A stretch of DNA of 52,043 bases from Spirochaetota bacterium. GTDB lineage: Bacteria > Spirochaetota > Spirochaetia > Treponematales > Rectinemataceae. This document shows, piece after piece, positions 28,470 through 46,446 of this stretch. The notes under the pieces are model-generated. The model made no database searches. It was not told the origin of the DNA and worked only from the letters and a program-made list of their open reading frames with translations. Numbering within the stretch: the first letter of the stretch is position 1; each line of letters opens with the position of its first letter. The stretch covers positions 1 through 52,043 of the forward strand of contig VKGY01000014.1 of the NCBI GenBank assembly GCA_008080685.1, read 5' to 3'. The translations under genes and the position numbers were made by a program.

Positions 28470-29576
28470 TTATTTAGCGAATGCACTGGGGAATTTGTCC
28501 TTGTAGCTCAGGACCGTGCCGATCGACTCGGCGTTGAGCATAGCGTGGACTATGGCCCGCGCCAAGGCGTCTGCCGCGGCGCTTCCCAATTTATTGACGT
28601 TAGCCGATGTATTGCCCCACACGGCTTGCTGCTTGAGGGTATCCAGGTCTAAGAGGCCGGTGCCCAACACGAATATCGTGTCGCCATCGAACATGGTGTG
28701 GGCGGGGCGGATAGCCCTGGCCATTCCGTCATGTGCCATTTCCGCGATTTTCTGCGCCTGGGCCTTGGTTAGTTTCACGTTCGTGGCGATACACGCGATG
28801 GTTGTGTTCTTCACCGGTTCCATATCTTCAAGCGAGGCCACGGAGAAGCCGCCGTTCAAGGCCGCCACAGGCTTGCCAAGGTTGCCGAACTCGCCGTTCA
28901 CTTCCAGGTACCGGGCGTAAAACTCTCCCGTGGCGGGATTCACCGTTGAGCCTCCGGCGTTGACCGCGACTATAGCGCCCACGAAAACCCCGTCTCCCAG
29001 ATTGACGCTGGCCGTTCCCAAGACTCCCTTCATGCCGCCGGCCACCGCCCCGGCTCCTGCGCCGACATTGCCCATCTTTACCGGCCCCGCGCTTGCCGCC
29101 TCGCATGCCTGATAGCCAAAGGCCGTGTCCGGCCTGTAGGTGAAGGCCCTGCCGAATCTTCCCGGATCGAAAAGCACCGCCGCGGGCACGATAGGCACTA
29201 CGTTGCCGCCGCCCACTGGCCAGCCTCGCTTGTGCTCCTCAAGCCACATCATGACCCCGTGGGCTGCCGCTAGGCCGTAGGCGCTTCCGCCGGTGAGCAC
29301 CACCGCATCAACCTTGTCCACCATATTGGTCGGTCTAAGAAGATCGGTCTCCCGGCTTCCCGGCGCCGATCCCCGCACGTCCACGCCACCCACGGCTCCC
29401 TTTGGAGCGAGTATCACCGTCGTGCCGGTGTTTTGGCTCTGATATTGTCCAACCTCGATGCCGGGAACATCGGTGATCGCGTTGAGCGGTCCGGTCAATA
29501 CGACTCCTTGGGCTCCAAGGCCGGCAATACCTAAGGCCGCGACACAGGCGGCCACGGCGAAGAACTTTCTTCTCAT
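28470..29576 (-). CDS. P1-family peptidase (DmpA / S58 L-aminopeptidase-like), secreted
   Basis: Signal peptide MRRKFFAVAACVAALGIAGLGAQG. Motifs: NAITDVPGIEVGQ, GTTVILAP, GGVDVRGSAPGSRETDLL and VDAVVLTGGSAYGLAAA. The start is ATG 29576, preceded by AAGGAGGAG. The track start at 29594 lies inside that RBS. Confidence 0.7.
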   Translation of the reverse strand: MRRKFFAVAACVAALGIAGLGAQGVVLTGPLNAITDVPGIEVGQYQSQNTGTTVILAPKGAVGGVDVRGSAPGSRETDLLRPTNMVDKVDAVVLTGGSAYGLAAAHGVMMWLEEHKRGWPVGGGNVVPIVPAAVLFDPGRFGRAFTYRPDTAFGYQACEAASAGPVKMGNVGAGAGAVAGGMKGVLGTASVNLGDGVFVGAIVAVNAGGSTVNPATGEFYARYLEVNGEFGNLGKPVAALNGGFSVASLEDMEPVKNTTIACIATNVKLTKAQAQKIAEMAHDGMARAIRPAHTMFDGDTIFVLGTGLLDLDTLKQQAVWGNTSANVNKLGSAAADALARAIVHAMLNAESIGTVLSYKDKFPSAFAK

Positions 29577-29708
29577 ACGCTCCTCCTTTCCCACAATGAT
29601 GTAGACGGAAAATATTCCGTTCCGCTAAAAGTCTGGAACTACCCCCGGAAGAAGTCAACCCAAGTCCGCCCCGCAGGGGCGAAAATTGAAGGCAAATTCA
29701 TTTTTTAT

Positions 29709-30704
29709 TCAACGTGCAATTCCAAGGGCCGAGGGCTCCCCCGCGATCTCCAGGCCGGCGAGGGGGGATGCGGTTTCATGCGCAGGCTCTCCTTGAATCG
29801 ATAAGCGCACTCGCAGCGTGGCGTCCACTGCCTCGGATATCCTCCGGGAAAGGAGTCCCGACACCGGGGCGCGCAAGATTCCTCCCCTGGTCCTCGTGGC
29901 TTCGATTTCAAGGAGGGCCGGCCGGCCGTTTCCGCCATATCCCCAAACCGCGCACTGCATTTTCGTATCGCTCAGCTTAAGTTCTTGGATGCGGGCTCGA
30001 TTGTAGGTTGTAAAGAGATATTTTCGCCCCCCAAGGACGGCGGCGCAGAGAAAGCCTCTGAACGAGGCGCCCATCCAAGGTATCTTCGCCACGGAAAGCA
30101 TCACCGAGTCGCCCGGGATGGAAAAGTCGTTCGACTGGGTCCAGATCCACGCCTCCGGCATGGACGTGCCCCAATCCTTCTCAATGTAGCCCCTCCCCGC
30201 ATGGAAGGCTTGGGTTTCACCCTCCGCACTTACCCAGCCATCGACCCTGTGGTCCATGCTCACCAAGCCGTGGTTGCATTCCATCCCCGGCGCGAAACTG
30301 AAAGGCCCCATGACCCCGGGGCTCCAAAAGGGAAAGCGGAAGGTTGAAAACCCGCCGTAGGCGAATTCGGCCTCGATGCGGGATTTTCCGTCAAAAAGAT
30401 CCACCCGCAGGCCCTGGGATGAAAACCTATTCTCCCCGACCCGTATCTCCAAGCCCCGTTCCGCGGCGAAGAATGCGTCCAGGGGATGCTGGAACCACCA
30501 GGACCGGCCTGTACGCCCCTGGATGGCTTGCACGAATGAGTAGCCTTCGCCATCTAGCCCGTAGGCGATGCCGGGGATGAAGGACCAAGCAGTAGATCCG
30601 GCGGATCCAGTAGATCCGGCGGTTTGCTTGAAATACCAGCCCTCGAAGTAGCTCCGCCTTTTGTTCTTTCCCTGAAAGGACTCGGGCGACCATAGGTTGC
30701 GCAT
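29709..30704 (-). CDS. Tocopherol-cyclase-like family protein (bacterial homologue of unknown function)
   Basis: The N-terminal RRSYFEGWYFKQ resembles the FEGWYF motif of the tocopherol cyclase family. 331 aa and soluble. Assigned by eye only. Confidence 0.45.
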   Translation of the reverse strand: MRNLWSPESFQGKNKRRSYFEGWYFKQTAGSTGSAGSTAWSFIPGIAYGLDGEGYSFVQAIQGRTGRSWWFQHPLDAFFAAERGLEIRVGENRFSSQGLRVDLFDGKSRIEAEFAYGGFSTFRFPFWSPGVMGPFSFAPGMECNHGLVSMDHRVDGWVSAEGETQAFHAGRGYIEKDWGTSMPEAWIWTQSNDFSIPGDSVMLSVAKIPWMGASFRGFLCAAVLGGRKYLFTTYNRARIQELKLSDTKMQCAVWGYGGNGRPALLEIEATRTRGGILRAPVSGLLSRRISEAVDATLRVRLSIQGEPAHETASPLAGLEIAGEPSALGIAR

Positions 30705-30791
30705 TCCTCATGGTCGCATGGGGCTGGCGCCGAGGCAACCCGTAGGCTCGTTTGCCGCCAGCCGCCCTTCCATTACTTTCATTCATGAAGT

Positions 30792-31982
30792 ATGCTGGAA
30801 CTGAAAATGGCAAGCAGTTCCAAACCCCTTCGCGTCTCGGATGTGAGGGAACGCAACGAAAAACTCGTCCTCAGGATCGTCCATTCCGCGGGCCTTTCCG
30901 GCATCTCCCAATCCGAGGTGGTGCAGGCCACGGGACTCAAGGCTCCCACCATTTTCCGGATCTTTTCTGCCCTGGAAGAAGCGGGGTACATCCAAGCCCT
31001 GGAGCGCGATTCCAACCCCCAGGAAGAGTCTGCCCGACAGGAACGCAAGGGCCGCAGGCCGGTTTCCTATGCGGTTCGGCAGGAAGCCTTCTATTGCGTA
31101 GGCATTGAATTTTGGGTTGAGCGCATTTCCATTGGAATTTTCGACTTCAGGGGAGCCTCGATCTACTCCCATACCTCATCCCTTTCCCGGACAGAAGATG
31201 CGGACCGAGTTTCAGACCTCATCGCAAGCCTGGTGAACCAGGCCATTGGGGATACCCAGGTTCCCCGAGATCGCATCCTTGGGGTGGGGATCGGAGCCCC
31301 CGGCCAGGTCAACGTGGGCAAACGCCTGGTAGCCTCCTATCCTAGGATTCCGGGCATGAAAAACTACCCCATTGCGGAGATTCTGGAGTCCAAGTTGGGG
31401 TTACCCGTATTGCTGCACAACAATTGCTCGGTCATCGCCCAGAGCGAGTTCCGATACGGCGGCCCTGAGGTCGAGGCTTCGATGTTCATGCTTCTTCTCC
31501 GCTCAGGAGTAAACGGCGCCTTCGTGGACTCGGGCAGGATGTTCCTGAGCCCCCGGGGTACCACCGTAGAGATGGGCCACATTTCTATAGACTACGACGG
31601 GCCCCTCTGCGTGTGCGGAGCCCGAGGCTGCCTGGAAGCCTTTATCACCTCCATGGACAGCGAAAACCTGCGCCGGGGCAACTGGCTCTTCGAAGGCCTC
31701 GATCCCTTCTCTCCATCCGCCGACCCCATCCTCACCGCCGCTGCGGCCTACATTTCCTCAGCCATCCAGACCGCCAGTCGGCTTTTCCGCCCCTCATCCT
31801 TCCTCATCGTCGCCTATTCCGACGAAATCGCCGCTGAGATCGCCCGACGAACCACCGAAAAACTCTCTCGAGAAACCTCGAGCTTCGACGAAACCAAACC
31901 GCTGATCCTCGGCCGAGCCTACAACCAGGGCCTTGCCCTGCGCGGCGCCGCCGACCTCGTCATCGACGCCTTCTTGTCCTGA
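30792..31982 (+). CDS. ROK-family transcriptional regulator
   Basis: An N-terminal wHTH (ISQSEVVQATGLKAPTIFRIFSALEEAGYI) precedes a ROK sugar-kinase-like body (GIGAPGQV) with the zinc motif GHISIDYDGPLCVCGARGCLE. The start may instead be ATG 30807. Confidence 0.8.
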   Translation: MLELKMASSSKPLRVSDVRERNEKLVLRIVHSAGLSGISQSEVVQATGLKAPTIFRIFSALEEAGYIQALERDSNPQEESARQERKGRRPVSYAVRQEAFYCVGIEFWVERISIGIFDFRGASIYSHTSSLSRTEDADRVSDLIASLVNQAIGDTQVPRDRILGVGIGAPGQVNVGKRLVASYPRIPGMKNYPIAEILESKLGLPVLLHNNCSVIAQSEFRYGGPEVEASMFMLLLRSGVNGAFVDSGRMFLSPRGTTVEMGHISIDYDGPLCVCGARGCLEAFITSMDSENLRRGNWLFEGLDPFSPSADPILTAAAAYISSAIQTASRLFRPSSFLIVAYSDEIAAEIARRTTEKLSRETSSFDETKPLILGRAYNQGLALRGAADLVIDAFLS

Positions 31983-32023
31983 TCAACTTTAGGGGTCAGA
32001 CCCCAAACATTGACTATTGTTTG

Positions 32024-32076
32024 ACAGGATAACAATGATTTTCAGGATCCACAGGGAAATCCTGTAGATCCTGTCG
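32024..32076 (+). repeat. Dispersed intergenic repeat, copy 4 (longest; contains a 13-bp-stem hairpin)
   Basis: The sequence is GACAGGATAACAATGATTTTCAGGATCCACAGGGAAATCCTGTAGATCCTGTC. CAGGATCCACAGG pairs with CCTGTAGATCCTG (one mismatch) around a GAAAT loop. Confidence 0.7.
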
Positions 32077-32182
32077 CCTCCCCTCCTCCATCGCATTACG
32101 CCGCACCTGCCGCAAATACCAGTTGACGAATCTCGATTTTTGATACTTACTTACAATAAGAAAATAATAGGGAGCGTAGGAT

Positions 32183-33362
32183 ATGAAACAACGCGTTCGC
32201 CTCGGCCTGGTCTGCCTGGCCAGGGAAACCTTCGATTACAAAGCCGCAGTGGAACTCTACGCCGGCATAATGAAGGACGTCGCCGCACTCGAAGCGGTGG
32301 ACTGGATCGCCATACCCAACCTAGTCATCTCCGTCGAGGATGCCAAGGCCGCAGCAGACGTCCTAGCATCCGCCAGGATAGACGGCCTAGTCTGCATTTC
32401 CGGCACCTTCCACCTGGGCCACCTGGTCCTCGAACTAAGAAAAGCTGCCCCCGCACCCATCCTCCTCTGGGGCCTGGACGAGCTTCCCTACAACGGCGGG
32501 AAAATCCGCCTCAACTCGGTCTGCGGCGTCAATCTCAACGCCTCCAACCTCTACAAGGCGGGAATCGACCAATACCGAGCCATCATAGGGCCAAAGATCG
32601 ACGAAACCTGGGTGGACGCCATAAGAGTCATCGTGGCGCTCCGAGACTCCCACGTAGGCCTGCTGGGATACCGCGCCCATGGCTTCTTCAACCTCTCTGT
32701 GGACGACCCCACCCTCTACGCCGCCACCGGAATCCTCGTGGACCACTACGAACTCTCGGACGTCCACAATTTCAAAGTCGAGGCCAGCGAAGTCGCCCGA
32801 AGAAAGGCCCAGCTCGGCCAGATCTTCGAGCTTTCCGGCGTGACCCAAGCCCAGGTGGACCGAGTCGCCGAGCTTTCCGCCAAGTTCGAAGGCTTCCTCT
32901 CGGCCAACAAGCTGGACGCCCTGGCCATCCGCTGCTGGCCTGAGTTCGCCCGGGACTTCGGCATCTCCCCCTGCGCCGCCATGTCCCTCCTCCAATCCGA
33001 AGGCAGAATCCTCGCCTGCGAAGGCGATGTGGAAGGCGCCATCTCCATGCTCGCCCACAAGGCCATCGGCGCGGAAACGCCCTATCTTTTCGACTTCTCC
33101 CAGGTCGACCTGGCCAACAACTTCGCCCTCTTCTGGCACTGCGGCGTGGCACCCTGCAACCTCTGGGACGGCTGCTCCGTCCGCTCCCTGGATACCTATT
33201 TCGCCGGTGGCAAAGGCGTTACGGCGGATTTCGTGCTCAAGTCAGGTCCTCGACCTCGTGGTGAACAACGGCGTCGCCCACCATGCCTCCGTGGTCTACG
33301 GAGACTTCATCCAGCCCCTAAGGCTCGCGGCCTCCATCCTCGGATGGGAAGTGATCGAGTGA
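32183..33362 (+). pseudogene. L-fucose/L-arabinose-isomerase-family protein with an internal deletion and frameshift
   Basis: The N-terminal ~350 aa resemble the FucI/AraA-like family (GLVCISGTFHLG, ILACEGDVEGAISML, FWHCG). The frame is lost near 33240-33246 (...GVTADFVLKSG). The family-like C-terminus QVLDLVVNNGVAHHASVVYGDFIQPLRLAASILGWEVIE continues in the frame of ORF 33027-33362 and ends 4 nt before the next gene. About 60-70 aa appear to be missing relative to typical family length (estimate from memory). Confidence 0.55.
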
Positions 33363-33366
33363 AACC

Positions 33367-34215
33367 ATGATCGATAAAACCGAACTCGCCCTCCTCGCTG
33401 AGGCGGCGAAGGAAATCAGAAAGAAAACCCTGGACATGATTGGCTTCCTGGGCGTGGGCCACATAGGCGGAGCCCTCTCCATCGCCGATCTTTTGGCAGT
33501 CCTGTACTTCCGGGAAATGAGAACAGATCCGGCCAATCCCCGCTGGGAAGGCCGGGACCGCCTCGTCCTCTCAAAAGGCCACGCGGGGCCGGCCCTCTAC
33601 AGCGCCCTGGCCATGAAAGGCTTTTTCCCCGAGGAGTGGCTCCATACTCTCAACCTGGGCGGATCCAACCTACCCAGCCACTGCGACAGGAATAAAACCC
33701 CGGGCATCGACATGACCACCGGCTCCCTGGGCCAGGGGATATCCGCAGCTTGCGGCATAGCCTTGGCCAATCGCATCGACCGGAGGGACGTCTTCACCTT
33801 CGCCATCGTGGGGGACGGGGAAACCAACGAAGGCCAGGTTTGGGAGGCGGCCATGTTCGCCGCCCACGCAGGCCTGGGCAAGCTCATCGCCTTCACGGAC
33901 AACAACAAGATGCAGATCGACGGCCTGACGGCCGATGTGTCGGGCATCGAATGCCTAGAGGCCAAGTGGTCGGCCTTCGGATGGGAAACCTCGAGGATAG
34001 ACGGCCACGACATTGGCGCTATAGTCCAAGCCATAGAAAAGGCCAAGGTCGGAGCCGAAGCCGCTGATGCAGGCGCGAAGGCCAAGCCCACCATGATCAT
34101 CCTGGACACGGTCAAGGGAAAGGGCGCGGCCTTCTGCGAAGGCCAGGTGGCCAGCCACAACATGAATTTCGACTACGAGACCGCGAAGAAAGCCATCGCG
34201 GACTTGGACCGCTAG
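33367..34215 (+). CDS. Transketolase, N-terminal (TPP-binding) subunit; SqwG/H-like
   Basis: Motifs: GHIGGALSIADLLAVLYF, SKGHAGPALY, GSLGQGIS and GDGETNEGQVWEAAMFA. This is the split-transketolase arrangement, with the next gene supplying the second subunit. Confidence 0.85.
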   Translation: MIDKTELALLAEAAKEIRKKTLDMIGFLGVGHIGGALSIADLLAVLYFREMRTDPANPRWEGRDRLVLSKGHAGPALYSALAMKGFFPEEWLHTLNLGGSNLPSHCDRNKTPGIDMTTGSLGQGISAACGIALANRIDRRDVFTFAIVGDGETNEGQVWEAAMFAAHAGLGKLIAFTDNNKMQIDGLTADVSGIECLEAKWSAFGWETSRIDGHDIGAIVQAIEKAKVGAEAADAGAKAKPTMIILDTVKGKGAAFCEGQVASHNMNFDYETAKKAIADLDR

Positions 34216-34228
34216 GAAGGAGCGTAAG

Positions 34229-35218
34229 ATGCCAGCCAAGGAAATGCGGGCGGTCTACGCCCAGACCCTGATAGAACTAGCCAAGGACGACCCCTCCATC
34301 ATGGTCGTGGAAGCCGACCTCATGCGCGCCACGGGAACCCAGCCCTTCAAGGCCGCCTATCCCGAAAGGGCGGTGGACGTGGGAGTGGCGGAGGCCAACA
34401 TGCTCGGCGTCGCCGCTGGCCTGGCCGCGGAGGGCAAGACCCCCTTCGCCGCCACCTTCGCCTGCTTCGCCTCCCGGCGGGCCTTCGACCAATTCTTCCT
34501 CTCGGGCGCCTACGCCAGGCTGCCCGTTAAGCTCGTGGGAACGGACCCGGGCATCACCGCCACCTTCAACGGTGGAACCCACATGCCCTTCGAAGATCTG
34601 GGCATCCTGCGCACTGTGCCGGGCATCGACATCGTCGAACCCTCGGACCCGGTTTCCTTGGCCGCCCTGGTCCCTCAAATCGCTAAATCCGGCAAGGTGG
34701 CCTACTTAAGGCTCCATAGGAAGGCGGTGGAGGAAATCTACCCCGCGGGCGAAACCTTCGAACTTGGAAAAGCTAAGCTCCTCCGGGAGGGAAACGACGC
34801 GGTGATCATCGCCCTGGGCGCCGTCATGGTCCCCGAGGCCCTGGCCGCAGCGGACCTTCTCAAGGCCGAGGGCATCGCCGCCGCGGTGATAGACGCCATC
34901 TCCGTCAAGCCTCTGGACGCCGAACTCATAGGCGCGTGGATCAGAAAAACTGGCGTCGCGGTGACAGCTGAGAACCACCAGAGGATCGGCAGCCTGGGCT
35001 CCGCGGTGGCTGAGCTCATGGCCGAGAACGGCTGGGAAGCTCCTGCGGCCGCATCGGGTTCCGGAAACCTGAGGCCCGCGCGCTTGGCAAGGATCGGCGT
35101 AGCCGACCAATTCGGCGAAGTAGGCACCCAGGATTGGCTCAAAGCAAGATTCGGCCTTACGGCCAGGGACATAGCCGAGGCGGTTAAAAGCCTCGTGCGC
35201 CAAAGGAAGGAACCATGA
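34229..35218 (+). CDS. Transketolase, C-terminal (pyrimidine-binding) subunit; SqwG/H-like
   Basis: Motifs: RAVDVGVAEANMLGVAAGLA and GGTHMPFEDLGILRTVPGIDIVEPSD. There is a short Ala/Gly-rich insertion near the C-terminus (WEAPAAASGSGNLRPA). Confidence 0.85.
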   Translation: MPAKEMRAVYAQTLIELAKDDPSIMVVEADLMRATGTQPFKAAYPERAVDVGVAEANMLGVAAGLAAEGKTPFAATFACFASRRAFDQFFLSGAYARLPVKLVGTDPGITATFNGGTHMPFEDLGILRTVPGIDIVEPSDPVSLAALVPQIAKSGKVAYLRLHRKAVEEIYPAGETFELGKAKLLREGNDAVIIALGAVMVPEALAAADLLKAEGIAAAVIDAISVKPLDAELIGAWIRKTGVAVTAENHQRIGSLGSAVAELMAENGWEAPAAASGSGNLRPARLARIGVADQFGEVGTQDWLKARFGLTARDIAEAVKSLVRQRKEP

Positions 35219-35688
35219 AAATCGCCATAGCCTCCGACCTCTCCGGATTTCCCCTCAAGGAAGAAATCGTCGCCCACCTCAAGACCAAGGAAGGGATCGA
35301 AGTCCTCGACCTTGGGATTCCCAGCGCCAACAAGCCCAGCCCCTACTTCGCCCAGGCTCCCCTGGTCTGCAAGGCGATCCAGCGCGGCGAGGCGGACAAG
35401 GGCATCCTGATCTGCGGCACCGGCCAGGGCATGGCCATCGTGGCCAACAAGCACAAGGGAATCTACGCCTGCGTGGTGGATGATGTCTTTTCCGCGGAAA
35501 GATCCAAGATAGTGAACAATGCCAACGTCATCACCTTAGGGGGCTGGATCACCGCCCCCTTCATGGGCAAGGAAATCGTGGACGCCTGGCTCGCCATGGC
35601 CTTCACCCAGAAGATGGAGTTCAAAAAGGACTTCCTCACCAACGCCTTCAACAAGGTGGTGGAGATCGAAGGGGAGAACTTCAAATGA
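35215..35688 (+). CDS. RpiB/LacA/LacB-family sugar(-phosphate) isomerase; SqwI-like
   Basis: MKIAIASDLSGFPLKEEI... and GILICGTGQGMAIVANK. 157 aa. 4-nt overlaps with both neighbouring genes. Confidence 0.8.
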   Translation: MKIAIASDLSGFPLKEEIVAHLKTKEGIEVLDLGIPSANKPSPYFAQAPLVCKAIQRGEADKGILICGTGQGMAIVANKHKGIYACVVDDVFSAERSKIVNNANVITLGGWITAPFMGKEIVDAWLAMAFTQKMEFKKDFLTNAFNKVVEIEGENFK

Positions 35689-37106
35689 GCCAGCAAGATC
35701 CCCAGGACAACGCCGCTCTCGTGGCTGGATTGGTATCCAAGGCCCGGGCCGCCCAGGCTGTGGCCGCTGGCTGGAGTCAGGAACGGGTGGACGAGGTGGT
35801 ATTCGCCGCAGGCTGGGCTGTTTACAAGGACGAGAATATCCAGAAGCTCGCCCGGGCCGCGGTGGACGAGACAGGCATGGGCGTCTACGAAGACAAGCTC
35901 ACCAAGCACAAGAACAAGGTCATGGGAGTCCTCAAGGACATCAAAGGCGTAAAGACCGTAGGTCTCATGGAAATAGACGAGGCGCGGGGCATCAGGAAGT
36001 TCGCCAAGCCCGTGGGCGTGGTGGGCGCCTTGGCCCCGGTCACCAATCCCACCGCCACCCCCGCGTCGAACGGCCTTTCCATCCTGAAAGGGGCCAACGC
36101 GGTCATCTTCGCCCCCCATCCCAAAGCTAAAAAAGCCACCAAGATGGCCTGCGACTTCATGCGCGCCGCCATCGCCGCCGCCGGAGGCCCTCAGGATCTC
36201 GTCCAGTGCATCGAGGAGCCCTCGGTGGAACTCACCGGCGAACTCATGCGCCAGGTGGACCTGGTCGTGGCCACCGGCGGCGGCGCCATGGTCAAGGCCG
36301 CCTACTCCTCGGGCACCCCCGCCTTCGGCGTAGGCCCCGGCAACGCCGTCCAACTCCTCTGCGAGGACGCGGATCCCCTGGACGCGGCGGCCAAAATCTC
36401 AATGTCCAAATGCTTCGACAATGCCACCTCCTGCTCCAGCGAAAATTCAGCCGTGGTCCATTCCTCGGTCTATCCGGCCTTCGTCGCCGCCCTGAAAGCC
36501 AAGGGCGGCCACCTCTGCAGCCCCGAGGAAAAAACTCTCCTGCGCTCCTATATATGGATCAAGGGCAAGAACGGCGCCGAGGGCCTCAATCCCGCCGTCA
36601 TCGCCCAAGGCGCCAAAAAGATAGCCCAGGGCGCCGGATTTTCAGTTCCCGAAGGCACACGCTTCCTCATGGTCCAGGGAGAGTCCGATATCGAAGGAGA
36701 CAAGTTCTTCCATGAGAAGCTATCCCCCGTCCTTACCCTCCTTTCCTGCTCCAGCTTCCAGGAAGGCCTGGACTTCGTGCGACGCATCACCGACGCCTGC
36801 GGCACCGGCCATTCATCGGGCATCTTCACCTTCGACGAAGGCTATGTAAGGACCATGGGCGAAACGATGAAATCCAGCCGCATCATGGTAAGGCAACCCA
36901 TGGTGGCGGGGAACGGAGGAGCCTTCTTCAACGGCATGCCTTCCACGGTCACCTTAGGCTGCGGCACCTGGGGCGGCAACATCACAACCGAGAACATCCA
37001 CTGGCGGCACTTCATCAACGTGACCTGGCTCTCCATGCCCCTGGAGCCCCGCCGTCCCACGGACGAGGAAATGTTCGCCGGGACCTGGGCCAAGTTTGGC
37101 CGCTAG
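35685..37106 (+). CDS. CoA-acylating aldehyde dehydrogenase (EutE/PduP type); SqwD-like
   Basis: 473 aa with the catalytic-Cys region CFDNATSCSSENSAVVH. It lacks the long-form ALDH termini. It sits next to an ADP-forming CoA ligase. Confidence 0.75.
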   Translation: MSQQDPQDNAALVAGLVSKARAAQAVAAGWSQERVDEVVFAAGWAVYKDENIQKLARAAVDETGMGVYEDKLTKHKNKVMGVLKDIKGVKTVGLMEIDEARGIRKFAKPVGVVGALAPVTNPTATPASNGLSILKGANAVIFAPHPKAKKATKMACDFMRAAIAAAGGPQDLVQCIEEPSVELTGELMRQVDLVVATGGGAMVKAAYSSGTPAFGVGPGNAVQLLCEDADPLDAAAKISMSKCFDNATSCSSENSAVVHSSVYPAFVAALKAKGGHLCSPEEKTLLRSYIWIKGKNGAEGLNPAVIAQGAKKIAQGAGFSVPEGTRFLMVQGESDIEGDKFFHEKLSPVLTLLSCSSFQEGLDFVRRITDACGTGHSSGIFTFDEGYVRTMGETMKSSRIMVRQPMVAGNGGAFFNGMPSTVTLGCGTWGGNITTENIHWRHFINVTWLSMPLEPRRPTDEEMFAGTWAKFGR

Positions 37107-37121
37107 CCTCAAGGAGGATGG

Positions 37122-38249
37122 ATGAAACTGTACGAACACCAGGCGAAGGACGTCTTCGCCAAGGCAGGGATCCCCATTCCCCGGGGCATCCTCGCCGTGG
37201 ACGAAGCCCAGGCCGAGGCCGCCGGAGAAACAATAGGCTACCCCTGCGTGGCCAAGGCCCAGGTCCTTTCCGGAGGACGGGGCAAGGCAGGCCTTATCCG
37301 CCTGGCGCGCGGCCAGGCTCAGCTCAAGGAAGCCGCCAAGACCATCTTCGCCGCCCCACAAAAAGTCAGACTCCTCCTTATCGAGGAGGCGGTGGACTTC
37401 GAGAATGAAATCTACCTGGCCGTGACCGCCGATCCCGCGGGAGGCGGAGCCTTGCTCCTGGCCTGCGCCGAGGGAGGAATAGACATAGAAGAACTGGCCC
37501 GCACGGCGCCGGAGAAAATCCTCAAAACGCACGTCCCCCTCTCGGAGAGCCTCATGCCCTTCCGCGCCCGGGACCTCGCCTATTCCCTGGGCTTCTCAGG
37601 CGAAAAAGCCAAGCAATTCGCCGCCATAGCCCAAAGCCTCTACGCCGTGTTCCGCGCCCAGGACGCGGAACTGGCGGAGATAAATCCCCTCTTCGCCGTA
37701 AAATCAGGCGGATTCGTAGCCGGTGACGGAAAGCTCTCTGTAGACGACAACTCCCTTAACCTCCATCCCGAATGGGAACCCCAAGCGGGTGACTTCGATT
37801 CCGAAACCGCTTTCGAAGCCTACAAGGAAGGCATTCCTTACCTCCAGTTCGACGGAGACATCAGCCTCATGTGCGCCGGCGCCGGCCTCACCACCACCGT
37901 GTACGACCTCATCGCCGACGCCGGGGGCACGGTGGCCAACTACCTCGAGTTCGGCGGTCCCAACTACCGCAAGGGCCTCAAGGCCATGGAACTCTGCGTA
38001 AGGAACAACCCAAAGGTTATCCTCATCGTCACCTTTGGCACCATCGCCCGGGCCGACGTCATGGCCGAGGGCATAGTCTCCGCCATGGCCGCCTTGAAAC
38101 CCCCCTGCCTCATCGTGACCTGCATCCGGGGCACAGGAGAGGAAGACGCAGCCAAGACCCTCGCGGCCGCAGGCCTCGATCCCCTGGTTGACACCGAAAA
38201 GGCGGTCAAGCGGGCTGTTGAATTCTCCCGATCCGGAGGTCGCCCATGA
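37122..38249 (+). CDS. ADP-forming acyl-CoA ligase, beta (ATP-grasp) subunit, SucC-like; SqwK/L-like
   Basis: MKLYEHQAKDVFAKAGIPIPRG... and CVAKAQVLSGGRGKAG are SucC-type ATP-grasp motifs. Confidence 0.8.
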   Translation: MKLYEHQAKDVFAKAGIPIPRGILAVDEAQAEAAGETIGYPCVAKAQVLSGGRGKAGLIRLARGQAQLKEAAKTIFAAPQKVRLLLIEEAVDFENEIYLAVTADPAGGGALLLACAEGGIDIEELARTAPEKILKTHVPLSESLMPFRARDLAYSLGFSGEKAKQFAAIAQSLYAVFRAQDAELAEINPLFAVKSGGFVAGDGKLSVDDNSLNLHPEWEPQAGDFDSETAFEAYKEGIPYLQFDGDISLMCAGAGLTTTVYDLIADAGGTVANYLEFGGPNYRKGLKAMELCVRNNPKVILIVTFGTIARADVMAEGIVSAMAALKPPCLIVTCIRGTGEEDAAKTLAAAGLDPLVDTEKAVKRAVEFSRSGGRP

Positions 38250-39148
38250 GCATCTTCATAGACAGGACAACCAGGGTCGTAGCCTTCGGCGCCACGGGCA
38301 GCGAAGGCTCCTTCTGGACCAAGCACATGGTGGAATTGGGCACCCAGGTGGTCGCGGCAGTGACGCCTGGCAAGGAAGGAGAAAAAGTCGAGCCGGAAAT
38401 CCCCGTCTTCCACAGCCTTAGACGGGCCCTGGCCCAGATTTCCACCGACGCGGCCATGCTCTTCGTGCCCCCGCGCTTCGCCAAGGACGCGGTCTTCGAA
38501 GCTTTGGACGGTGGCATCAGAAAAATCGTCGTGGTGGCGGACGGCATTCCCCTGCACGAAGCCCTCCAGATCCGCGCGGCGGCCCTATCCTGCGGCGCCC
38601 GCGTCATAGGCGGCAACACCTCGGGCGCCATAAGCCCCGGCCAAGCCATGATGGGCATGTTCCCCTATTGGATCCAAAGGGTCTACAAGCCCGGCAGGAT
38701 AGGCGTCATGACCCGCTCGGGAAGCCTGACCAACGAAGTAACCGCCATGGTAGTGGCCGGGGGCTTCGGCGTCTCCAGCCTCATCGGCGTAGGCGGCGAC
38801 TCGGTCCCCGGAACCCGCTTCGCCGAACTTCTGCCCGACTTCCAGGCCGACCCGGAAACCGACGCGGTGGTACTCATTGGCGAGCTGGGGGGAACCATGG
38901 AAGAGGAAGTGGCCGATGAAATCGCCGCCCAGCGCTTCACCAAGCCCATCGTAGCCTTCATAGGCGGTCGCCACGCTCCACCGGGAAAGCGCATGGGCCA
39001 CGCCGGCGCCATAGTTTCCGGAGGCAGAGGCTCTGCCCTGGACAAGATCGCCGCCTTGCAGAAGGCCGGCGCCTTGGTTGCGGAAAAGCCCCGTCTCGTA
39101 GGTGAATGTCTTCGAAAGGCTCTCGGGAGGATGTATGATCGGAATTAA
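38246..39148 (+). CDS. ADP-forming acyl-CoA ligase, alpha (CoA-binding) subunit, SucD-like; SqwK/L-like
   Basis: RVVAFGATGSEGSF and the phospho-His loop GHAGAIVSGGRGSA. 4-nt overlap with the beta subunit gene. Confidence 0.8.
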   Translation: MSIFIDRTTRVVAFGATGSEGSFWTKHMVELGTQVVAAVTPGKEGEKVEPEIPVFHSLRRALAQISTDAAMLFVPPRFAKDAVFEALDGGIRKIVVVADGIPLHEALQIRAAALSCGARVIGGNTSGAISPGQAMMGMFPYWIQRVYKPGRIGVMTRSGSLTNEVTAMVVAGGFGVSSLIGVGGDSVPGTRFAELLPDFQADPETDAVVLIGELGGTMEEEVADEIAAQRFTKPIVAFIGGRHAPPGKRMGHAGAIVSGGRGSALDKIAALQKAGALVAEKPRLVGECLRKALGRMYDRN

Positions 39149-40640
39149 GGCAAACCTCACCATCAGAAACCTTGGCTTCCTCGGCCTAGCCCTCGCGGCG
39201 TGTGTCTTTCTCGTCACCGCCATTCCTCCTGCTTCGCTAGTCGACACGATCGCCAAGGCCATCGACGCCGGAACAGGCAAACCTAGCTATCCAACTTCGA
39301 TGCTGTCGGGCCAGGCCGCCATGTCAGCCCTTGGCGTATTGGCTTTCTGCCTCGTCCTCTGGGTTACCGAAGCCCTGCCCTTCCACATCACCGGCATGAT
39401 TGCCCTTGCCCTCCTCACCTTCCTTAAAATCGGAAAATATAAAGACATCATCTCCACGGGATTCGGAAACGACATCGTCATTTTTTTTATCGGAGTCCTC
39501 ATATTGGGCGCCTTTATCACAAAATCCGGCTTGGGGAAAAGGATTTCTGCAGTAATCCTTTCGATTACCGGCAATGATACACGCCTCATTATCCTGGGCT
39601 TTCTTATCACCGGCGTCGTTCTTTCCATGTGGATCACCGACATGGCCGTCGCCGCGATGCTCATGCCCCTCGCCCGGGCGATTCTCCAGGAAGAAGCTGT
39701 CACGCCCATGAAATCAAATTTTGGCAAGGGGCTCATGATTTCGGTCGCCTGGGGAGCGCTTATCGGAGGCATCGGCACCCCTGCGGGCACAGGCTCCAAT
39801 CCCATAGCCCTGCAGTTCCTCTCCACCATGGCAGGCATCAACCTCAGCTTCCTGGATTGGATGGCCTATGGAGTGCCCTCCGCCATCCTCCTCATCGCCC
39901 CAGCCTGGGGGGTCCTCCTTCTTTTCTTCCCCCCTGAGATGAAACGCCTCAAGGTCTCCAGGGAGGACCTGAAAATTCAACTAAAATCCATGCCCGCAAT
40001 GCATCGGGAAGAAAAAATCACTCTCTCTATTTTCATTCTCACGGTTCTCGTATGGGTTTTCACTCCCCTTATCCAGGATCTTATCGGGATGCAGATAGAA
40101 ATTTCACTTCCCGCGCTCATCGCAGCCACCCTCTTTTTTCTGCCAGGAATGAGCCGGACCAAATGGAAAGATATAGAATCTGAGATCGACTGGGCGGGAA
40201 TCATCCTCATTGTCTCCGGGCTCTCCCTCGGAACCTATCTATATAAGACAGGCGCTGCGGAATGGCTTGCCGTCTCCCTTCTAGGCAGAATCGGTGAGGT
40301 ACCACTCTTTATGCAAATTTTCCTCGTCACCTTGAGCGTCTGCCTGCTTAAAGTGGTTTTCTCCTCCAACACCGTCACGGCCACCATACTCATTCCCCTC
40401 ATCATCGGCCTGGGGAAGGCCCTCAACATGGATGTCACGGCTATCACCCTGGCCGCGGGCCTCACCTCCAGCTTGGCCTTCATCCTGGTCACCACCACTC
40501 CCACGAACGTTATACCCTTCAATACAGGGTATTTCAGCATAAAGGACATGGCCAAGGCAGGCCTTGCCCTTACCGTGGTGGCTTCCCTGATCATCACCCC
40601 GGTTTTCATGGTCGTTGGAGCGCTCAGAGGAGGTTTCTAA
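39135..40640 (+). CDS. DASS/SLC13-family anion permease (putative organosulfonate/dicarboxylate carrier)
   Basis: About 500 aa and polytopic, with an internally repeated architecture and DASS-like segments (LWVTEALPFHITGM, GALIGGIGTPAGTGSNP, SSNTVTATILIPL). Start ATG 39135 is preceded by GGGAGG; the track start at 39102 is less likely. Confidence 0.65.
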   Translation: MIGIKANLTIRNLGFLGLALAACVFLVTAIPPASLVDTIAKAIDAGTGKPSYPTSMLSGQAAMSALGVLAFCLVLWVTEALPFHITGMIALALLTFLKIGKYKDIISTGFGNDIVIFFIGVLILGAFITKSGLGKRISAVILSITGNDTRLIILGFLITGVVLSMWITDMAVAAMLMPLARAILQEEAVTPMKSNFGKGLMISVAWGALIGGIGTPAGTGSNPIALQFLSTMAGINLSFLDWMAYGVPSAILLIAPAWGVLLLFFPPEMKRLKVSREDLKIQLKSMPAMHREEKITLSIFILTVLVWVFTPLIQDLIGMQIEISLPALIAATLFFLPGMSRTKWKDIESEIDWAGIILIVSGLSLGTYLYKTGAAEWLAVSLLGRIGEVPLFMQIFLVTLSVCLLKVVFSSNTVTATILIPLIIGLGKALNMDVTAITLAAGLTSSLAFILVTTTPTNVIPFNTGYFSIKDMAKAGLALTVVASLIITPVFMVVGALRGGF

Positions 40641-40653
40641 TGGATAAAACAGC

Positions 40654-41334
40654 ATGAGCATCGAACACATACGAAAGTGTAACCCATCGATCGACGTTAG
40701 GAGCCAGGATGACCCACTGCTAGGCGAATACGCCAGGCTCATCGATCCCAGACCCTTTGCCGGACTTGTCGCCCTCGCTGATCGAACAACAGCCATCGAT
40801 CCCGCTGTCAATCGTTACGTGGGAAGCTGTCCCGAACTCGAGGCTGATCCCTCATTTAGCCTGCTCGGCGAGTATTTTGGATTTGCGGATATTCAAGTGG
40901 GGTACTGCAACGGGCCAAACTCAAAATTAAATGCGGTGGAATGGCACAAGTCCTCGGAAATCGACATCGCCGTCACCGACATGATTTTACTGTTGGGAAA
41001 GCGAAGCGACATAGACTCAAAAGGCAATCTCCACTCTTCGCGATTGGAATGCTTTTATATCGCAAAGGGCGGTTCCCTTGAAATACTGCCTGAGGTATTG
41101 CATTTCTCTCCTTGCAAGGTCCATCCGGAAGGGTTCAAGAGCATAATCGTGCTTCCGAGAGGGACTAACGAAGCCCTCGATTCCCCAAAGACGAGCAATG
41201 CCGGGCCCGAATCGCAATTTCTGTTCATGAAAAACAAATGGCTCATCGCCCATCCCGAGCGCCTTCCCCTCGTTCAGAAAGGAGCCTATCCAGGGATCAT
41301 GGGAGAGAATATCGAGATTTTCTTGGAAGCCTAA
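40654..41334 (+). CDS. DUF4867-like protein (candidate sulfoquinovose isomerase, SqvD/SftI-like)
   Basis: 226 aa and soluble. The call rests on my recollection that DUF4867 proteins of this size act as SQ isomerases in Firmicutes sulfoglycolysis clusters, together with the gene context. Sequence-level support is weak without an HMM search. Confidence 0.4.
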   Translation: MSIEHIRKCNPSIDVRSQDDPLLGEYARLIDPRPFAGLVALADRTTAIDPAVNRYVGSCPELEADPSFSLLGEYFGFADIQVGYCNGPNSKLNAVEWHKSSEIDIAVTDMILLLGKRSDIDSKGNLHSSRLECFYIAKGGSLEILPEVLHFSPCKVHPEGFKSIIVLPRGTNEALDSPKTSNAGPESQFLFMKNKWLIAHPERLPLVQKGAYPGIMGENIEIFLEA

Positions 41335-41343
41335 GGCCGAAAG

Positions 41344-41377
41344 CCGGGGCGGAAGGCCCTAGGGCCTTTCGCCCCGG
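41344..41377. terminator. Long GC hairpin between convergent genes (possible bidirectional terminator)
   Basis: CCGGGGCG-GAAGGCCC-TA-GGGCCTT-T-CGCCCCGG is a near-perfect palindrome. It overlaps the last codons and stop of the GH31 gene. No clear U-tract is present. Confidence 0.35.
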
Positions 41378-43365
41378 TAGAACACAGGCGGTCTGCCCAA
41401 GGGGGCGTCCACCTCGACCGTAGAAGACACGTCGCCCTGGCGCGCAAGATCGCCGGACCAGAAGTCCCGCCATTCCCCGGCGGGGAAGCGCACAATCCTG
41501 GACCTCGCCCCTTCCACCATCACCGGAGCCACAAGGAGGTCGGGACCCAGCATGTATTGGTCGTCCATCGCACCAAAGCCCTCGTCCAGGGGAAATTCCA
41601 GGAACATGGGCCTCATCATGGGAATCCCGCGCTCCCTATTCTCCTGGGCAAGGCGCTTCAGGTACGGCTTAAGCCCCACATGGACCCTGCCCATGGCCGC
41701 CAGGTGGGCCAAGGTTTCCTCGTCGGAATCAAACTGCCAGTTGTCCTTGGGCCTGTTTCCCTCGTGGGTGCGCATCAAGGGGCTGAAGGCGGCCCAACGC
41801 ATGAAAAGCTCCTTGGTCCGCTTCATCCCGAAGAGGGTCGTATAGCCGCCTATGTCGCTGTGATGGACTCCGTGCCCGCTCATGCCCAGACTCAGCGCCG
41901 CCCGCACCGCGGAAGGAAGCCCGTCGTCGGCGGACCAATCCACGTTCTGGTCTCCCGCCCACATCATGGGGCACCACTTCTGGCTTCCCGTGAAGCCCGC
42001 GCGCATGAAGTAGAAAACCTCGGATTCGGCGCCAGCCTTCCGTAGCGCCTCAAAATTGCACTTGGCCCACAGAGCAGGCCACAGGTTGTGCGCCATCAAC
42101 GCGGAGGATCCGTCCCAAAGCACTGCGTCCGTGGGCAGGTATTCTCCGAAATCCGCCATCCATCCGCCTAGGCCAAGATCGACCATGTTCTTCTTCAGCG
42201 CCTCGGCGAACCAATCGAAGGCTTCGGGATTGGTCAGGTCGGGAATACCGGCGTAGAACTCGCCGAAATCCACATAATAGTCGTCCCCGGCCGAATCCTT
42301 GACCAGGTAACCCTTGGCCGCGGCCTCCTCGCAGAGGCTCCAGCCCTTTCCGACATAGCAGTTGGCGTAGCCCAGGAACCGAACTCCCTGGGCGCGCCAC
42401 CGGAGGACAGCCTCGTCCAAGGCCGGATATCGTTCCCTATTCCACACCCAGTCCCAGCGCAAACGTTGGCCGAAACTGGTCATGTTGATTCCTTCCCAGT
42501 CCTGGGCCCAGATTCCCGCCACCGGCACGCCCGCGGCCCGGGCCTTTTCAAGCTTGGCCTGGCACACATCGGTTCCGCCCTGGATGCCCAGGATCACGCC
42601 GTCGTAGGACCACTCCGGCATGGGAGGCTGGCGGCCGAAATACGCCGACTGGTCCGACAGAACCCCCTTGAGGCCCCTGGCCTCTCCGGCCCCGAACACA
42701 AGACGCGCCGGCGCCCCCCAGGCATAGAGCTCATGCCTGTCCGCCTTGCGGAAATCGAATACCGTGTAGGCTGAGGAATCGAAATGGCACCAATACCCCG
42801 CGCTGGAGACAAAAGAAGGCTGGGGGAAGAAGGTCCACCAGTAATCGCCCCCGGCGTTGTCCGCCAAGTCGGCTTCCAGAGTTATCCGGGTGGATTTGTT
42901 CCTTCCCACACCCTGTTCGCTGGTCCAGAGAGGAAACCGGCGTCCGCGGAGATCCAGATGCGAAAACTGTTCCCCTCCCCCGTAAACCCGCTCCCCAGGA
43001 TCGGCGGGCAGGCTGATCCTGAAGCGGTTCGCTTCCCTGGCGCCTTCTGCCTCGAACTCCACCCCCAGCCGACCATCTTGCGTCCTTCGCACTGATATCC
43101 GAATCGCATAACGCCCCGAATCGGAAAGGACAGCCCCAAAAAGCTCGCCGCCGCCCCTGGTGTCCTCTTTAAAATTGCGCAACGCACAGAGTTCCCGGAT
43201 TTCATCGCGTATGTCGAAATTCCCATGATGCATGGAAATCTCAGCCTCGCCGTTGCCCGCGTAGACCAAGGGATTCTCGGGACTGTGGCGCGCCACCACC
43301 CGATCGCCCAGGAAAATCTCAAACCCATCGCCCTGACGTTTGACTGACGGAAGAGGACCGCTCAT
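41359..43365 (-). CDS. yihQ: GH31 sulfoquinovosidase (YihQ family)
   Basis: It matches my memory of E. coli YihQ along its length: GEQFSHLDLRGRRFPLWTSEQGVGRNK, NAGGDYWWTFFPQPSFVS, GIWAQDWEGINMTSFGQRLRWDWVWN (sulfonate-binding R..W), GGWMADFGEYLPTD (nucleophile), MMWAGDQNVDWS (acid/base), HHSDIGGYTTLF and MRTHEGNRPKDNWQFD. The start is set at ATG 43365, which overlaps the permease stop as ATGA and gives 668 aa. Confidence 0.8.
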   Translation of the reverse strand: MSGPLPSVKRQGDGFEIFLGDRVVARHSPENPLVYAGNGEAEISMHHGNFDIRDEIRELCALRNFKEDTRGGGELFGAVLSDSGRYAIRISVRRTQDGRLGVEFEAEGAREANRFRISLPADPGERVYGGGEQFSHLDLRGRRFPLWTSEQGVGRNKSTRITLEADLADNAGGDYWWTFFPQPSFVSSAGYWCHFDSSAYTVFDFRKADRHELYAWGAPARLVFGAGEARGLKGVLSDQSAYFGRQPPMPEWSYDGVILGIQGGTDVCQAKLEKARAAGVPVAGIWAQDWEGINMTSFGQRLRWDWVWNRERYPALDEAVLRWRAQGVRFLGYANCYVGKGWSLCEEAAAKGYLVKDSAGDDYYVDFGEFYAGIPDLTNPEAFDWFAEALKKNMVDLGLGGWMADFGEYLPTDAVLWDGSSALMAHNLWPALWAKCNFEALRKAGAESEVFYFMRAGFTGSQKWCPMMWAGDQNVDWSADDGLPSAVRAALSLGMSGHGVHHSDIGGYTTLFGMKRTKELFMRWAAFSPLMRTHEGNRPKDNWQFDSDEETLAHLAAMGRVHVGLKPYLKRLAQENRERGIPMMRPMFLEFPLDEGFGAMDDQYMLGPDLLVAPVMVEGARSRIVRFPAGEWRDFWSGDLARQGDVSSTVEVDAPLGRPPVFYRGERP

Positions 43366-44195
43366 CCTTTCACGCCTCCCGCGGTGATGCCGCGGATAAG
43401 AAACTTCTGCATGCCCAGGGTAAAGAAGAACACCGGCACCAGCATCAAGGTTCCCGCGGCGCAAGCCTGCCCCCAGGTAAGGGTTTCGCCGCCCAACAGC
43501 CCGTTGATCGCGATGGGAGCGGTCTTGGCCTTCACTCCCGTAAGGATCAAGGCATAGAGGAATTCGTTCCAGGAATTGAGGAAGGCGAACACCGCAGCCA
43601 CCACCAGGCCCGGTGCCACGATGGGCAGGAAGATCCTGAAAAAGACTCCCCCTCGGTTGCAGCCGTCCACCATCGCCGCCTCCTCATACGCCTTGTCCAC
43701 GGCGGTGAAGAAAGGCAGCAGGAGCCAAATCACGTAAGGGACATTGAAACTCGTGTGGGCCAAGGTTATGCCCGCCACCGTGTCCCGGATGCCGACAAAG
43801 GAAAACATCAGGTACAAAGCAATGACCAAAGAGATCTGGGGGAGCATCCTGAAAACCAAAAAGCTGTACGCCAGACCGTTGCGCCAGGAGAATCTGAATC
43901 TTGCGATGCCGTAGGACGCCATGGCGCCTATGAGGACAGAAACGCCCGTGGAAAGAAGCCCCACGATGAGGCTGTTCCTCATGCCAAGCTGGAAGCCCTG
44001 GTTTTTCATGACCATCTCGTAGCTTTTCAAGGTGAGTTGAGAAAACTTGAAGGGCTGGCCGGAAAGAATGACAATGTCGCGCCTGAATCCGTTGATCACC
44101 GTGATCGCGATGGGATACAACTCGATAGCCAGCACCACGAAGGCGACCAGGGCGATTACGATGCTGGTCAAGGTTTTTTTCGTTCGCCGCTTCAT
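43362..44195 (-). CDS. Sugar ABC permease (MalG/CUT1 type)
   Basis: 277 aa with six TM segments. 4-nt overlap with the upstream permease. It sits between the SBP/permease genes and the sulfoquinovosidase gene. Confidence 0.8.
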   Translation of the reverse strand: MKRRTKKTLTSIVIALVAFVVLAIELYPIAITVINGFRRDIVILSGQPFKFSQLTLKSYEMVMKNQGFQLGMRNSLIVGLLSTGVSVLIGAMASYGIARFRFSWRNGLAYSFLVFRMLPQISLVIALYLMFSFVGIRDTVAGITLAHTSFNVPYVIWLLLPFFTAVDKAYEEAAMVDGCNRGGVFFRIFLPIVAPGLVVAAVFAFLNSWNEFLYALILTGVKAKTAPIAINGLLGGETLTWGQACAAGTLMLVPVFFFTLGMQKFLIRGITAGGVKG

Positions 44196-46283: not shown

Positions 46284-46334
46284 TTTCTCCTCCTTAGTAA
46301 GATCCCGATCGGGGCTTTCCGCCCTGTCGAAATA

Positions 46335-46357
46335 TTTACTTTTCAAAAGAAAGTAAA
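46335..46357. promoter_or_regulatory. Perfect 8-bp inverted repeat TTTACTTT-N7-AAAGTAAA in a divergent promoter region
   Basis: It lies 52-74 nt upstream of the SBP start (minus strand) and about 90 nt upstream of the SDR start (plus strand). It is a candidate operator with no assigned regulator. Confidence 0.35.
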
Positions 46358-46446
46358 GCACGACTCCGAACCCTTGTCAACAAAATGCTTTTCCACAGAT
46401 GAAAAAAGAAGTATGATTCCAAAAATTCTGCTGTTCGGAGGTCGCA

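Follow-up and report, generated by a model that had tools for sequence, protein, structure and literature searches.

Known Systems and the Spirochaete Locus

The sulfo-transketolase route (sulfo-TK) of sulfoquinovose (SQ) degradation comprises SqvD, SqvB, SqwGH, SqwI, and then SqwF, or, in an oxidative variant, SqwD and SqwKL, which yield sulfoacetate and ATP (PMC12890257; PMC9594981; PMC11659671); the FucI homologue in the nomenclature of this pathway is the SQ isomerase SqvD (PMC9594981). Acholeplasma sp. is the organism in which the sulfoacetate-forming variant was characterised (Chu et al. 2023, Appl Environ Microbiol 89:e00617-23; cited by PMC12890257 and PMC11659671), and the variant has been reported in Spirochaetes, Firmicutes, and Tenericutes (PMC12890257); a paper on SQ in the rumen (PMC13219744) mentions neither spirochaetes nor the sulfo-TK pathway. 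Two further systems are pertinent, namely the sulfo-TK pathway in its reductive form from Clostridium sp. MSTE9 (SqvD, SqvB, SqwGH, SqwI, SqwF, and SqwE; Liu et al. 2021, reviewed in PMC9594981) and the sulfoacetate degradation of Bilophila wadsworthia, in which SauCD and SauS have been proven biochemically to be a sulfoacetate-CoA ligase and a sulfoacetaldehyde dehydrogenase, and in which SauI, a carrier of the sodium:sulfate-symporter family, has been proposed as the sulfoacetate transporter or importer (PMC10413351). Here we addressed a plus-strand operon (32183-41334) and its flanking genes in a 52,043-nucleotide (nt) stretch of DNA, hereafter the window (contig VKGY01000014.1 of assembly GCA_008080685.1), which belongs to an uncultured Spirochaetota metagenome-assembled genome (MAG) of 2.54 Mb and 89% completeness. 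Judged from the homology and gene context of each step, this operon very likely encodes the sulfoacetate-forming variant of the sulfo-TK pathway for SQ.

Compared with the variant of Acholeplasma sp., the operon drew on the same enzyme families with the same logic (a FucI-like isomerase, a split transketolase, an RpiB-type isomerase, an acylating dehydrogenase, and an ADP-forming SucCD-like ligase), with linkage to YihQ and an ABC importer in both. In an Acholeplasmataceae genome (L078, not shown to be the characterised strain), the corresponding proteins were 58% (thiamine-diphosphate-binding transketolase subunit, TK-N), 51% (transketolase subunit with the pyrimidine-binding and C-terminal domains, TK-C), 43% (RpiB), 58% (aldehyde dehydrogenase, ALDH), 56% (SucC), and 67% (SucD) identical to those of the window. 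However, the isomerases were only 26% identical, a ROK-family regulator was found here and GntR regulators there, and SqvB was present here but not seen in L078. The carrier genes also differed, with a DASS-family gene after the ligase here, whereas the Mollicutes locus carried a MatC/CitMHS-type gene between the RpiB and dehydrogenase genes. The MSTE9 system, likened by its description, follows the same route from SQ to sulfoacetaldehyde, SqvB and YihQ included; in contrast, the operon here lacked an SqwF-type reductase and no TauE-type exporter was found in the genome, and the end product would be sulfoacetate together with ATP rather than isethionate. With respect to the Bilophila-like system, the ALDH-SucCD triads of Desulfovibrionaceae were 48-55% (ALDH), 56-61% (SucC), and 65-71% (SucD) identical to the window proteins; SauS and SauCD of Bilophila run degradatively with the glycyl-radical lyase IseG downstream, whereas the corresponding genes here were coupled to a sugar-cleaving transketolase.

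Proposed Pathway and Its Enzymes

The initial annotation had read the locus as a sulfo-TK operon for SQ with an SqwD/SqwKL branch to sulfoacetate, and family searches, motifs, and synteny in about 80 other genomes supported this reading; its placement of the genes on the plus strand, and of YihQ and a sugar ABC importer in convergent orientation just downstream, likewise agreed with the open reading frame listing and the family matches. In the proposed pathway, SQ or its glycerol glycoside would enter through the convergent importer, and YihQ would liberate SQ. An SqvD/SftI-type isomerase, possibly helped by the SqvB cupin, would convert SQ to 6-deoxy-6-sulfofructose (SF), from which an SqwGH-type transketolase would move C1-C2 to glyceraldehyde 3-phosphate, giving xylulose 5-phosphate and 4-deoxy-4-sulfoerythrose. 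The latter would be converted by an SqwI-type RpiB isomerase to the ketose 4-deoxy-4-sulfoerythrulose, and a second transketolase round would leave sulfoacetaldehyde. An SqwD-type acylating dehydrogenase would then form sulfoacetyl-CoA and NADH, and an SqwKL-type SucCD-like ligase would release sulfoacetate while ADP and phosphate are converted to ATP. Finally, the DASS carrier would export sulfoacetate, and the upstream ROK protein probably represses the operon.

The transketolase subunits and the RpiB-family protein showed the features expected of this scheme. The GDG-X27-NN motif of TK-N started at residue 149, and compared with the transketolase encoded in Mollicutes clusters linked to YihQ, TK-N was 56-58% and TK-C 47-51% identical. 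Five other TK-N copies were found in the genome (three split, one full-length of housekeeping type on C24, and one more); relative to the operon TK-N, the three split copies showed 39-46% identity and the full-length C24 copy 37%. Overall, the operon transketolase was 53-58% identical to those of YihQ-linked clusters of other phyla, versus 37-46% to the remaining five copies in the same genome, and by these identities it is a dedicated paralogue beside the housekeeping copy. The RpiB-family protein carried the CGTG motif with Cys67, and its gene was always located 3' of the transketolase pair in related loci, overlapping the TK-C stop by 4 nt.

A second pair of split transketolase genes was located at G000:C112:1457-4937, after two ABC sugar permease genes, with 46% (TK-N) and 39% (TK-C) identity to the operon pair; the TK-N match in this genome search held one TGA. 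This pair may belong to another transketolase-based sugar operon, and two further split pairs were located on C198 and C167.

For the dehydrogenase, the best NCBIfam match was NF047625 (acylating sulfoacetaldehyde dehydrogenase SauS), and an FDN..SCSSE motif with the catalytic Cys250 was present. The ligase contained the ATP-grasp_2, CoA_binding, and Ligase_CoA domains, with a GHAGA phosphohistidine loop at residue 251 of the SucD-like subunit. The SucC-like protein shared 56-57% identity with its counterparts in Mollicutes SQ clusters, and for those in Desulfovibrio ALDH-SucCD triads the figure was 56-61%; the ligase alpha subunit was 65-71% identical to the ligases of both groups. Outside SQ clusters, the ligase had its closest relatives in the Desulfovibrio triads. 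The dehydrogenase, ligase, and isomerase were each single-copy in the genome, and the SucC-like gene was the sole ATP-grasp_2 gene found there.

Conservation of the Gene Cluster among Relatives

To place the operon among its relatives, we used 80 loci obtained from a scan of species-representative genomes with the SucC-like protein alignment, and all proteins of the window were mapped onto these loci. The gene order recurred in relatives at 55-98% protein identity and is not a chance arrangement; among the relatives that matched the order of the window most closely, the identities were 72-98%. In particular, the module of TK-N, TK-C, RpiB, ALDH, SucC, and SucD was observed in dozens of Spirochaetota genomes, with YihQ, the ABC importer, DUF4867, ROK, and isomerase genes often nearby. 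The homologues of the isomerase and ligase came overwhelmingly from Spirochaetota MAGs, among which the closest named genome (L006) showed 77-98% protein identity. Within the family of the host, a close ligase homologue was found in 25 of 69 species genomes, representing 14 of 21 genera, which suggests that the trait is common there.

Outside the Spirochaetota, YihQ-linked clusters with the module were present in Acholeplasmataceae, Mariniplasma, and Izemoplasmataceae. In these Mollicutes the order was YihQ, ABC importer, SftI-like isomerase, transketolase pair, RpiB, MatC/CitMHS-type carrier, ALDH, SucCD, and GntR regulators, and these loci represent the published Acholeplasma-type cluster. 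The Desulfovibrio loci carried ALDH-SucCD alone, in the SauS/SauCD arrangement.

Many of the spirochaete loci (L011, L013, L018, L020, L022, L024, L025, and L030) had the full TK/RpiB/ALDH/SucCD/DASS module with no SqvD-like isomerase within 10 kb; in these spirochaetes, the isomerase would be located elsewhere or belong to another family.

The Isomerase Gene and a Probable Assembly Gap

The FucI-like gene had been taken for an accessory relic in the initial annotation, which also confused its role with that of the DUF4867 gene. Its product has NF048012 (sulfoquinovose isomerase SftI) as its sole NCBIfam match and is probably a divergent form of the core SQ isomerase SqvD/SftI (PMC9594981), whereas DUF4867 is the SqvB/SftX cupin and not an isomerase (PMC11968277). 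The window copy of the isomerase scored 153 bits, and an intact homologue 196 bits over its full length, against a cut-off of 700; the SftI-like isomerase of the Mollicutes locus reached 430 bits. The identity to the Mollicutes-cluster isomerase was 26% over the entire length, and both proteins contained ACE(G/A)D, FWHCG, and H..V.YGD motifs; no sequence relative of the isomerase was found in the PDB at E <= 0.01.

As assembled, the isomerase gene was frameshifted. Its product had 395 residues, compared with 438 in homologues, and agreed with them to residue 355 before diverging; the true C-terminus of 38 residues was present in another frame that ended at 33362. The protein P0248, from the same cluster as the best match, was identical both to residues 1-355 of this product and to the out-of-frame C-terminus, with 45 extra residues between them. 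Its gene was found on two ENA assemblies (L087 and L088), where the gene order was unchanged. L088 aligned with window positions 22183-43353 in two blocks spanning 21 kb at 99.99% and 99.90% identity, with only two substitutions in 21 kb; by direct count, the window lacked exactly 137 nt after 33246 that were present in L088. It also lacked 9 nt behind 41791, which were present in L088 and in contigs of three runs and which correspond to three codons of YihQ that align with CDF of E. coli YihQ. No repeat that could explain the 137-nt loss was found, and the microhomology at the junction was 1 nt.

An alternative reading is that the operon is decaying in this strain: the 137 nt would have been lost genuinely, leaving the isomerase gene as a pseudogene and, short of a substitute enzyme, stopping the pathway at its first step. 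The frameshift in the window as assembled would agree with decay, as would the finding of no second SftI-like gene in the 89%-complete genome, and the 9 nt missing within YihQ could mark a distinct sub-strain. However, all other genes of the operon were intact, and the missing piece was carried not only by the two ENA assemblies but also by Logan contigs from groundwater and soil metagenomes (three public runs, two studies), which had the extra letters at 33246; the deletion junction at 33246 was shown by no Logan contig of these three runs. A drinking-water metagenome (X6) offered only short, low-depth pieces and was uninformative on the 137-nt gap. Both missing pieces were unique to this assembly, a pattern consistent with errors of consensus or assembly, and we considered decay of the operon improbable. 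The isomerase break most likely reflects an error of this kind and, with less probability, a rare sub-strain; it is no trait of the species. The contig may contain other local consensus errors. The case cautions that what looks like a pseudogene of a key first enzyme can reflect a stretch that a single assembly lacks. Between the window and the near-identical assemblies and contigs, position 36815 also showed a synonymous A/C difference.

The End Module, the Carrier, and the Direction of the Pathway

A DASS homologue was located directly 3' of the SucD-like gene in 52 of the 68 related loci with room for it, and the carrier of the window exceeded the 198.6-bit cut-off of TIGR00785. Both the carrier and the ROK regulator, which had earlier been listed as peculiarities of this locus, belong to the ordinary makeup of this cluster in spirochaetes; the ROK homologue was found directly 5' of the isomerase gene in L002, L004, L005, L009, L010, and L087. 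No DASS homologue was found in the Desulfovibrio and Mollicutes loci within the fetched flanks (E <= 1e-3; within 10 kb for Desulfovibrio). We proposed the DASS carrier as a candidate sulfoacetate exporter, with its substrate and direction putative. If the sulfoacetate dianion is exported with Na+ or H+, efflux of the end product could provide extra energy beyond the substrate-level ATP.

In the sulfo-TK clusters of Mollicutes (L078:7334-8575, and the same place in L048, L058, and L076), a MatC/CitMHS-type dicarboxylate carrier was encoded between RpiB and the dehydrogenase, which suggests that two anion-carrier families were recruited to the same pathway end.

In principle, the reactions of the dehydrogenase, ligase, and DASS module are reversible, and the module might instead serve the uptake and activation of sulfoacetate, as SauI, SauCD, and SauS do in Bilophila. 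The kinship of the ligase and dehydrogenase with the Desulfovibrio ALDH-SucCD triads (51-61% identity), and the proposal of a sodium:sulfate-symporter-family carrier as the sulfoacetate importer in Bilophila (PMC10413351), would be in keeping with such a reversal. Nevertheless, translational coupling joined the module to the genes for the transketolase and RpiB, with YihQ adjoining. Moreover, no Xsc was found above the cut-off, the only glycyl-radical enzyme matched no equivalog, and no sulfoacetaldehyde-consuming step was evident. A reversed module is thus very unlikely.

Operation toward sulfoacetate, by comparison, agreed with the content of the genome. In the 89%-complete genome, the searches found neither an Xsc above the cut-off nor a gene of the TauE family, which fits the excretion of sulfoacetate rather than its desulfonation, and the genome fits a fermentative anaerobe excreting sulfoacetate. 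The genome's only glycyl-radical enzyme (763 residues; G000:C189:37363-40585, L086:2364-5586) adjoined its activase and fell below every NCBIfam equivalog cut-off, the best equivalog-level match being the sulfopropanediol dehydratase HpsG (241 vs 1000 bits). A glycyl-radical enzyme marks the organism as an anaerobe.

The Sugar Substrate

YihQ exceeded the 553-bit equivalog cut-off of NF007746 and aligned with E. coli YihQ (5AED) over its full length at 802 bits. The R-x-x-W (QRLRWDW), WMADFGE, WAGDQ, and HHSDIGGYT motifs were conserved, which include the residues that bind the sulfonate (R-x-x-W and Tyr) and the two motifs with the catalytic Asp. The ABC importer genes were co-located with YihQ in L006, L007, L010, L014, L030, L033, and L037 at 51-96% identity, and no ATPase gene was found within the cluster; the importer probably takes up SQ or sulfoquinovosyl glycerol. 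The DUF4867 protein aligned with B. megaterium SqvB (PDB 9GYY) at 194 bits. Of the 2His-2Glu metal site, both the later His and the E-x-H-x3-E motif were retained. The function of this cupin is unsettled even with a crystal structure (PMC11968277), and it has been proposed to be an SQ/SF mutarotase or ring-opening enzyme.

These data bear on whether the same enzymes act on a different anionic sugar, such as another 6-sulfo- or 6-deoxy-hexose. Such a substrate could be accommodated by an isomerase distant from the characterised SQ isomerases and by an importer of unassigned substrate, but it would be difficult to reconcile with a YihQ that surpasses its equivalog cut-off and retains the sulfonate-binding residues specific for SQ glycosides, with SqvB as a protein linked to sulfoglycolysis, or with an end module that matches sulfoacetate enzymes. 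Consequently, we regarded a different sugar as highly unlikely.

The chance placement of an ordinary pentose-phosphate transketolase and a succinyl-CoA synthetase of the tricarboxylic acid cycle beside sugar genes, which generic Pfam domains and public annotations of the homologues as "succinate-CoA ligase" and "transketolase" might suggest, has a negligible probability, because the SucC-like and SucD-like proteins fell below the curated equivalog cut-offs (286 vs 370 bits for NF001913 and 317 vs 336 bits for NF004230), a full-length housekeeping transketolase (C24) exists elsewhere in the genome, and the linkage to YihQ, DUF4867, and RpiB is kept across phyla. The initial annotation had named ordinary enzymes of this kind, with no linkage to SQ genes in relatives, as the finding that would overturn its reading; the sub-cut-off ligase subunits, the transketolase paralogue, and the YihQ linkage in many relatives all pointed the other way.

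Strength and Implications of the Assignment

Several points weigh against the assignment of the operon to sulfoacetate-forming SQ degradation. The roles of the enzymes were deduced from sequence similarity and from neighbouring genes, and the comparisons were made with family models, with Mollicutes and Desulfovibrio loci, and with the PDB, not with the characterised sequences of MSTE9 and Acholeplasma sp. The dehydrogenase fell below the SauS equivalog cut-off (496 vs 600 bits), as did, on the same model, the ALDHs from the loci of Acholeplasmataceae (516 bits) and Desulfovibrio (470 bits). The isomerase is only distantly related to characterised SftI (196 vs 700 bits; 26% identity to the Mollicutes type), and in the window as assembled it would lose the conserved C-terminal 83 residues owing to the frameshift. 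The role and direction of the DASS carrier are putative, and a related carrier family has been proposed as the importer in sulfoacetate degraders. Moreover, the genome is 89% complete, and absences from it are not proof.

The operon adds no new pathway, as it represents a published variant that has already been reported for Spirochaetes, and the understanding of the pathway is unchanged. The spirochaete form might still be viewed as a distinct architecture of the known pathway, marked by a subfamily of FucI-like isomerases that has diverged deeply, a repressor of the ROK family, and a DASS carrier dedicated to it, although we consider this doubtful. With this locus, an uncultured lineage of groundwater and soil spirochaetes joins the organisms that would convert SQ, a very abundant sulfosugar, to sulfoacetate, which serves sulfite-respiring bacteria as a substrate, and the DASS carrier provides a concrete candidate for the exporter; the public runs with near-identical sequence were groundwater and soil metagenomes.

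Gene Organization and Flanking Features

The coordinates of the operon and its neighbours are collected in table 1. The genes had been described as joined mostly by 4-nt overlaps, which held for three junctions with true ATGA overlaps (TK-C/RpiB, RpiB/ALDH, and SucC/SucD). The fourth, between the isomerase and TK-N genes, is an artefact because the reading frame of the isomerase is shifted in this assembly; in the intact frame, the stop lies at 33360-33362, 4 nt before the ATG of TK-N. The remaining junctions differed, with an overlap of 14 nt between SucD and DASS and gaps of 13-15 nt at three junctions, each with ribosome-binding sites. The DASS gene was assigned an ATG start with a GGAGG ribosome-binding site, and an upstream GTG at 39102 was also open. 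The convergent YihQ gene was separated from the end of the operon by 24 nt.

Table 1. Positions of the SQ operon, its regulator, and the convergent genes in the window.
Feature	Position	Strand	Match or remark
ROK-family regulator with N-terminal winged helix (NagC/Mlc-like)	30792-31982	+	PF00480, 102.8 bits
Best sigma-70-like promoter match	32140-32168	+	Just 5' of the first gene of the operon
SqvD/SftI-type (FucI-like) sulfoquinovose isomerase, frameshifted here	32183-33370	+	NF048012 (sole NCBIfam match)
SqwG-like transketolase subunit, thiamine-diphosphate-binding half (TK-N)	33367-34215	+	PF00456, 181 bits
SqwH-like transketolase subunit, pyrimidine-binding and C-terminal domains (TK-C)	34229-35218	+	PF02779, 122.6 bits; PF02780, 95.2 bits
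SqwI-like RpiB/LacAB-family isomerase	35215-35688	+	PF02502, 140 bits
SqwD-like CoA-acylating sulfoacetaldehyde dehydrogenase (ALDH)	35685-37106	+	NF047625, 496 bits
SucC-like ligase subunit (beta)	37122-38249	+	PF08442, 161 bits
SqwL-like ligase alpha subunit (SucD-like; CoA-binding, phosphohistidine)	38246-39148	+	PF02629 and PF00549
DASS-family anion carrier	39135-40640	+	TIGR00785, 238 bits; PF00939, 176 bits
SqvB/SftX (DUF4867) cupin metalloprotein	40654-41334	+	PF16161, 204 bits
YihQ-type GH31 sulfoquinovosidase	41359-43464	-	NF007746, 893 bits
CUT1-type ABC importer, whole block	43362-46361	-	PF00528 (two), PF01547 (one)
ABC permease	43362-44195	-	
ABC permease	44192-45136	-	
ABC binding protein	45111-46361	-	

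The promoter-like site consisted of TTGATA, a 17-nt spacer, and AATAAT, matched at 10 of 12 positions, and was the best site in 30600-46600. In the promoter and terminator scans, the number of sites was not above that in shuffled sequence, and only the position of the best promoter site was suggestive. The ROK protein showed weak MarR_2/HTH_24 matches at residues 22-68, and its best NCBIfam matches were NagC and Mlc, far below the cut-off; its position makes it a probable repressor of the operon.

Tocopherol-cyclase-like and S58-peptidase genes (28470-30704) were located 5' of the ROK gene and kept this position in L005, L087, and L088, with no evident link to the SQ operon. The region between the ROK and isomerase genes contained a palindromic element (32010-32080) rich in GGATCC and ATCCTGT, which the initial annotation had listed as a repeat family elsewhere in the window and which could be either a mobile intergenic repeat or an operator.

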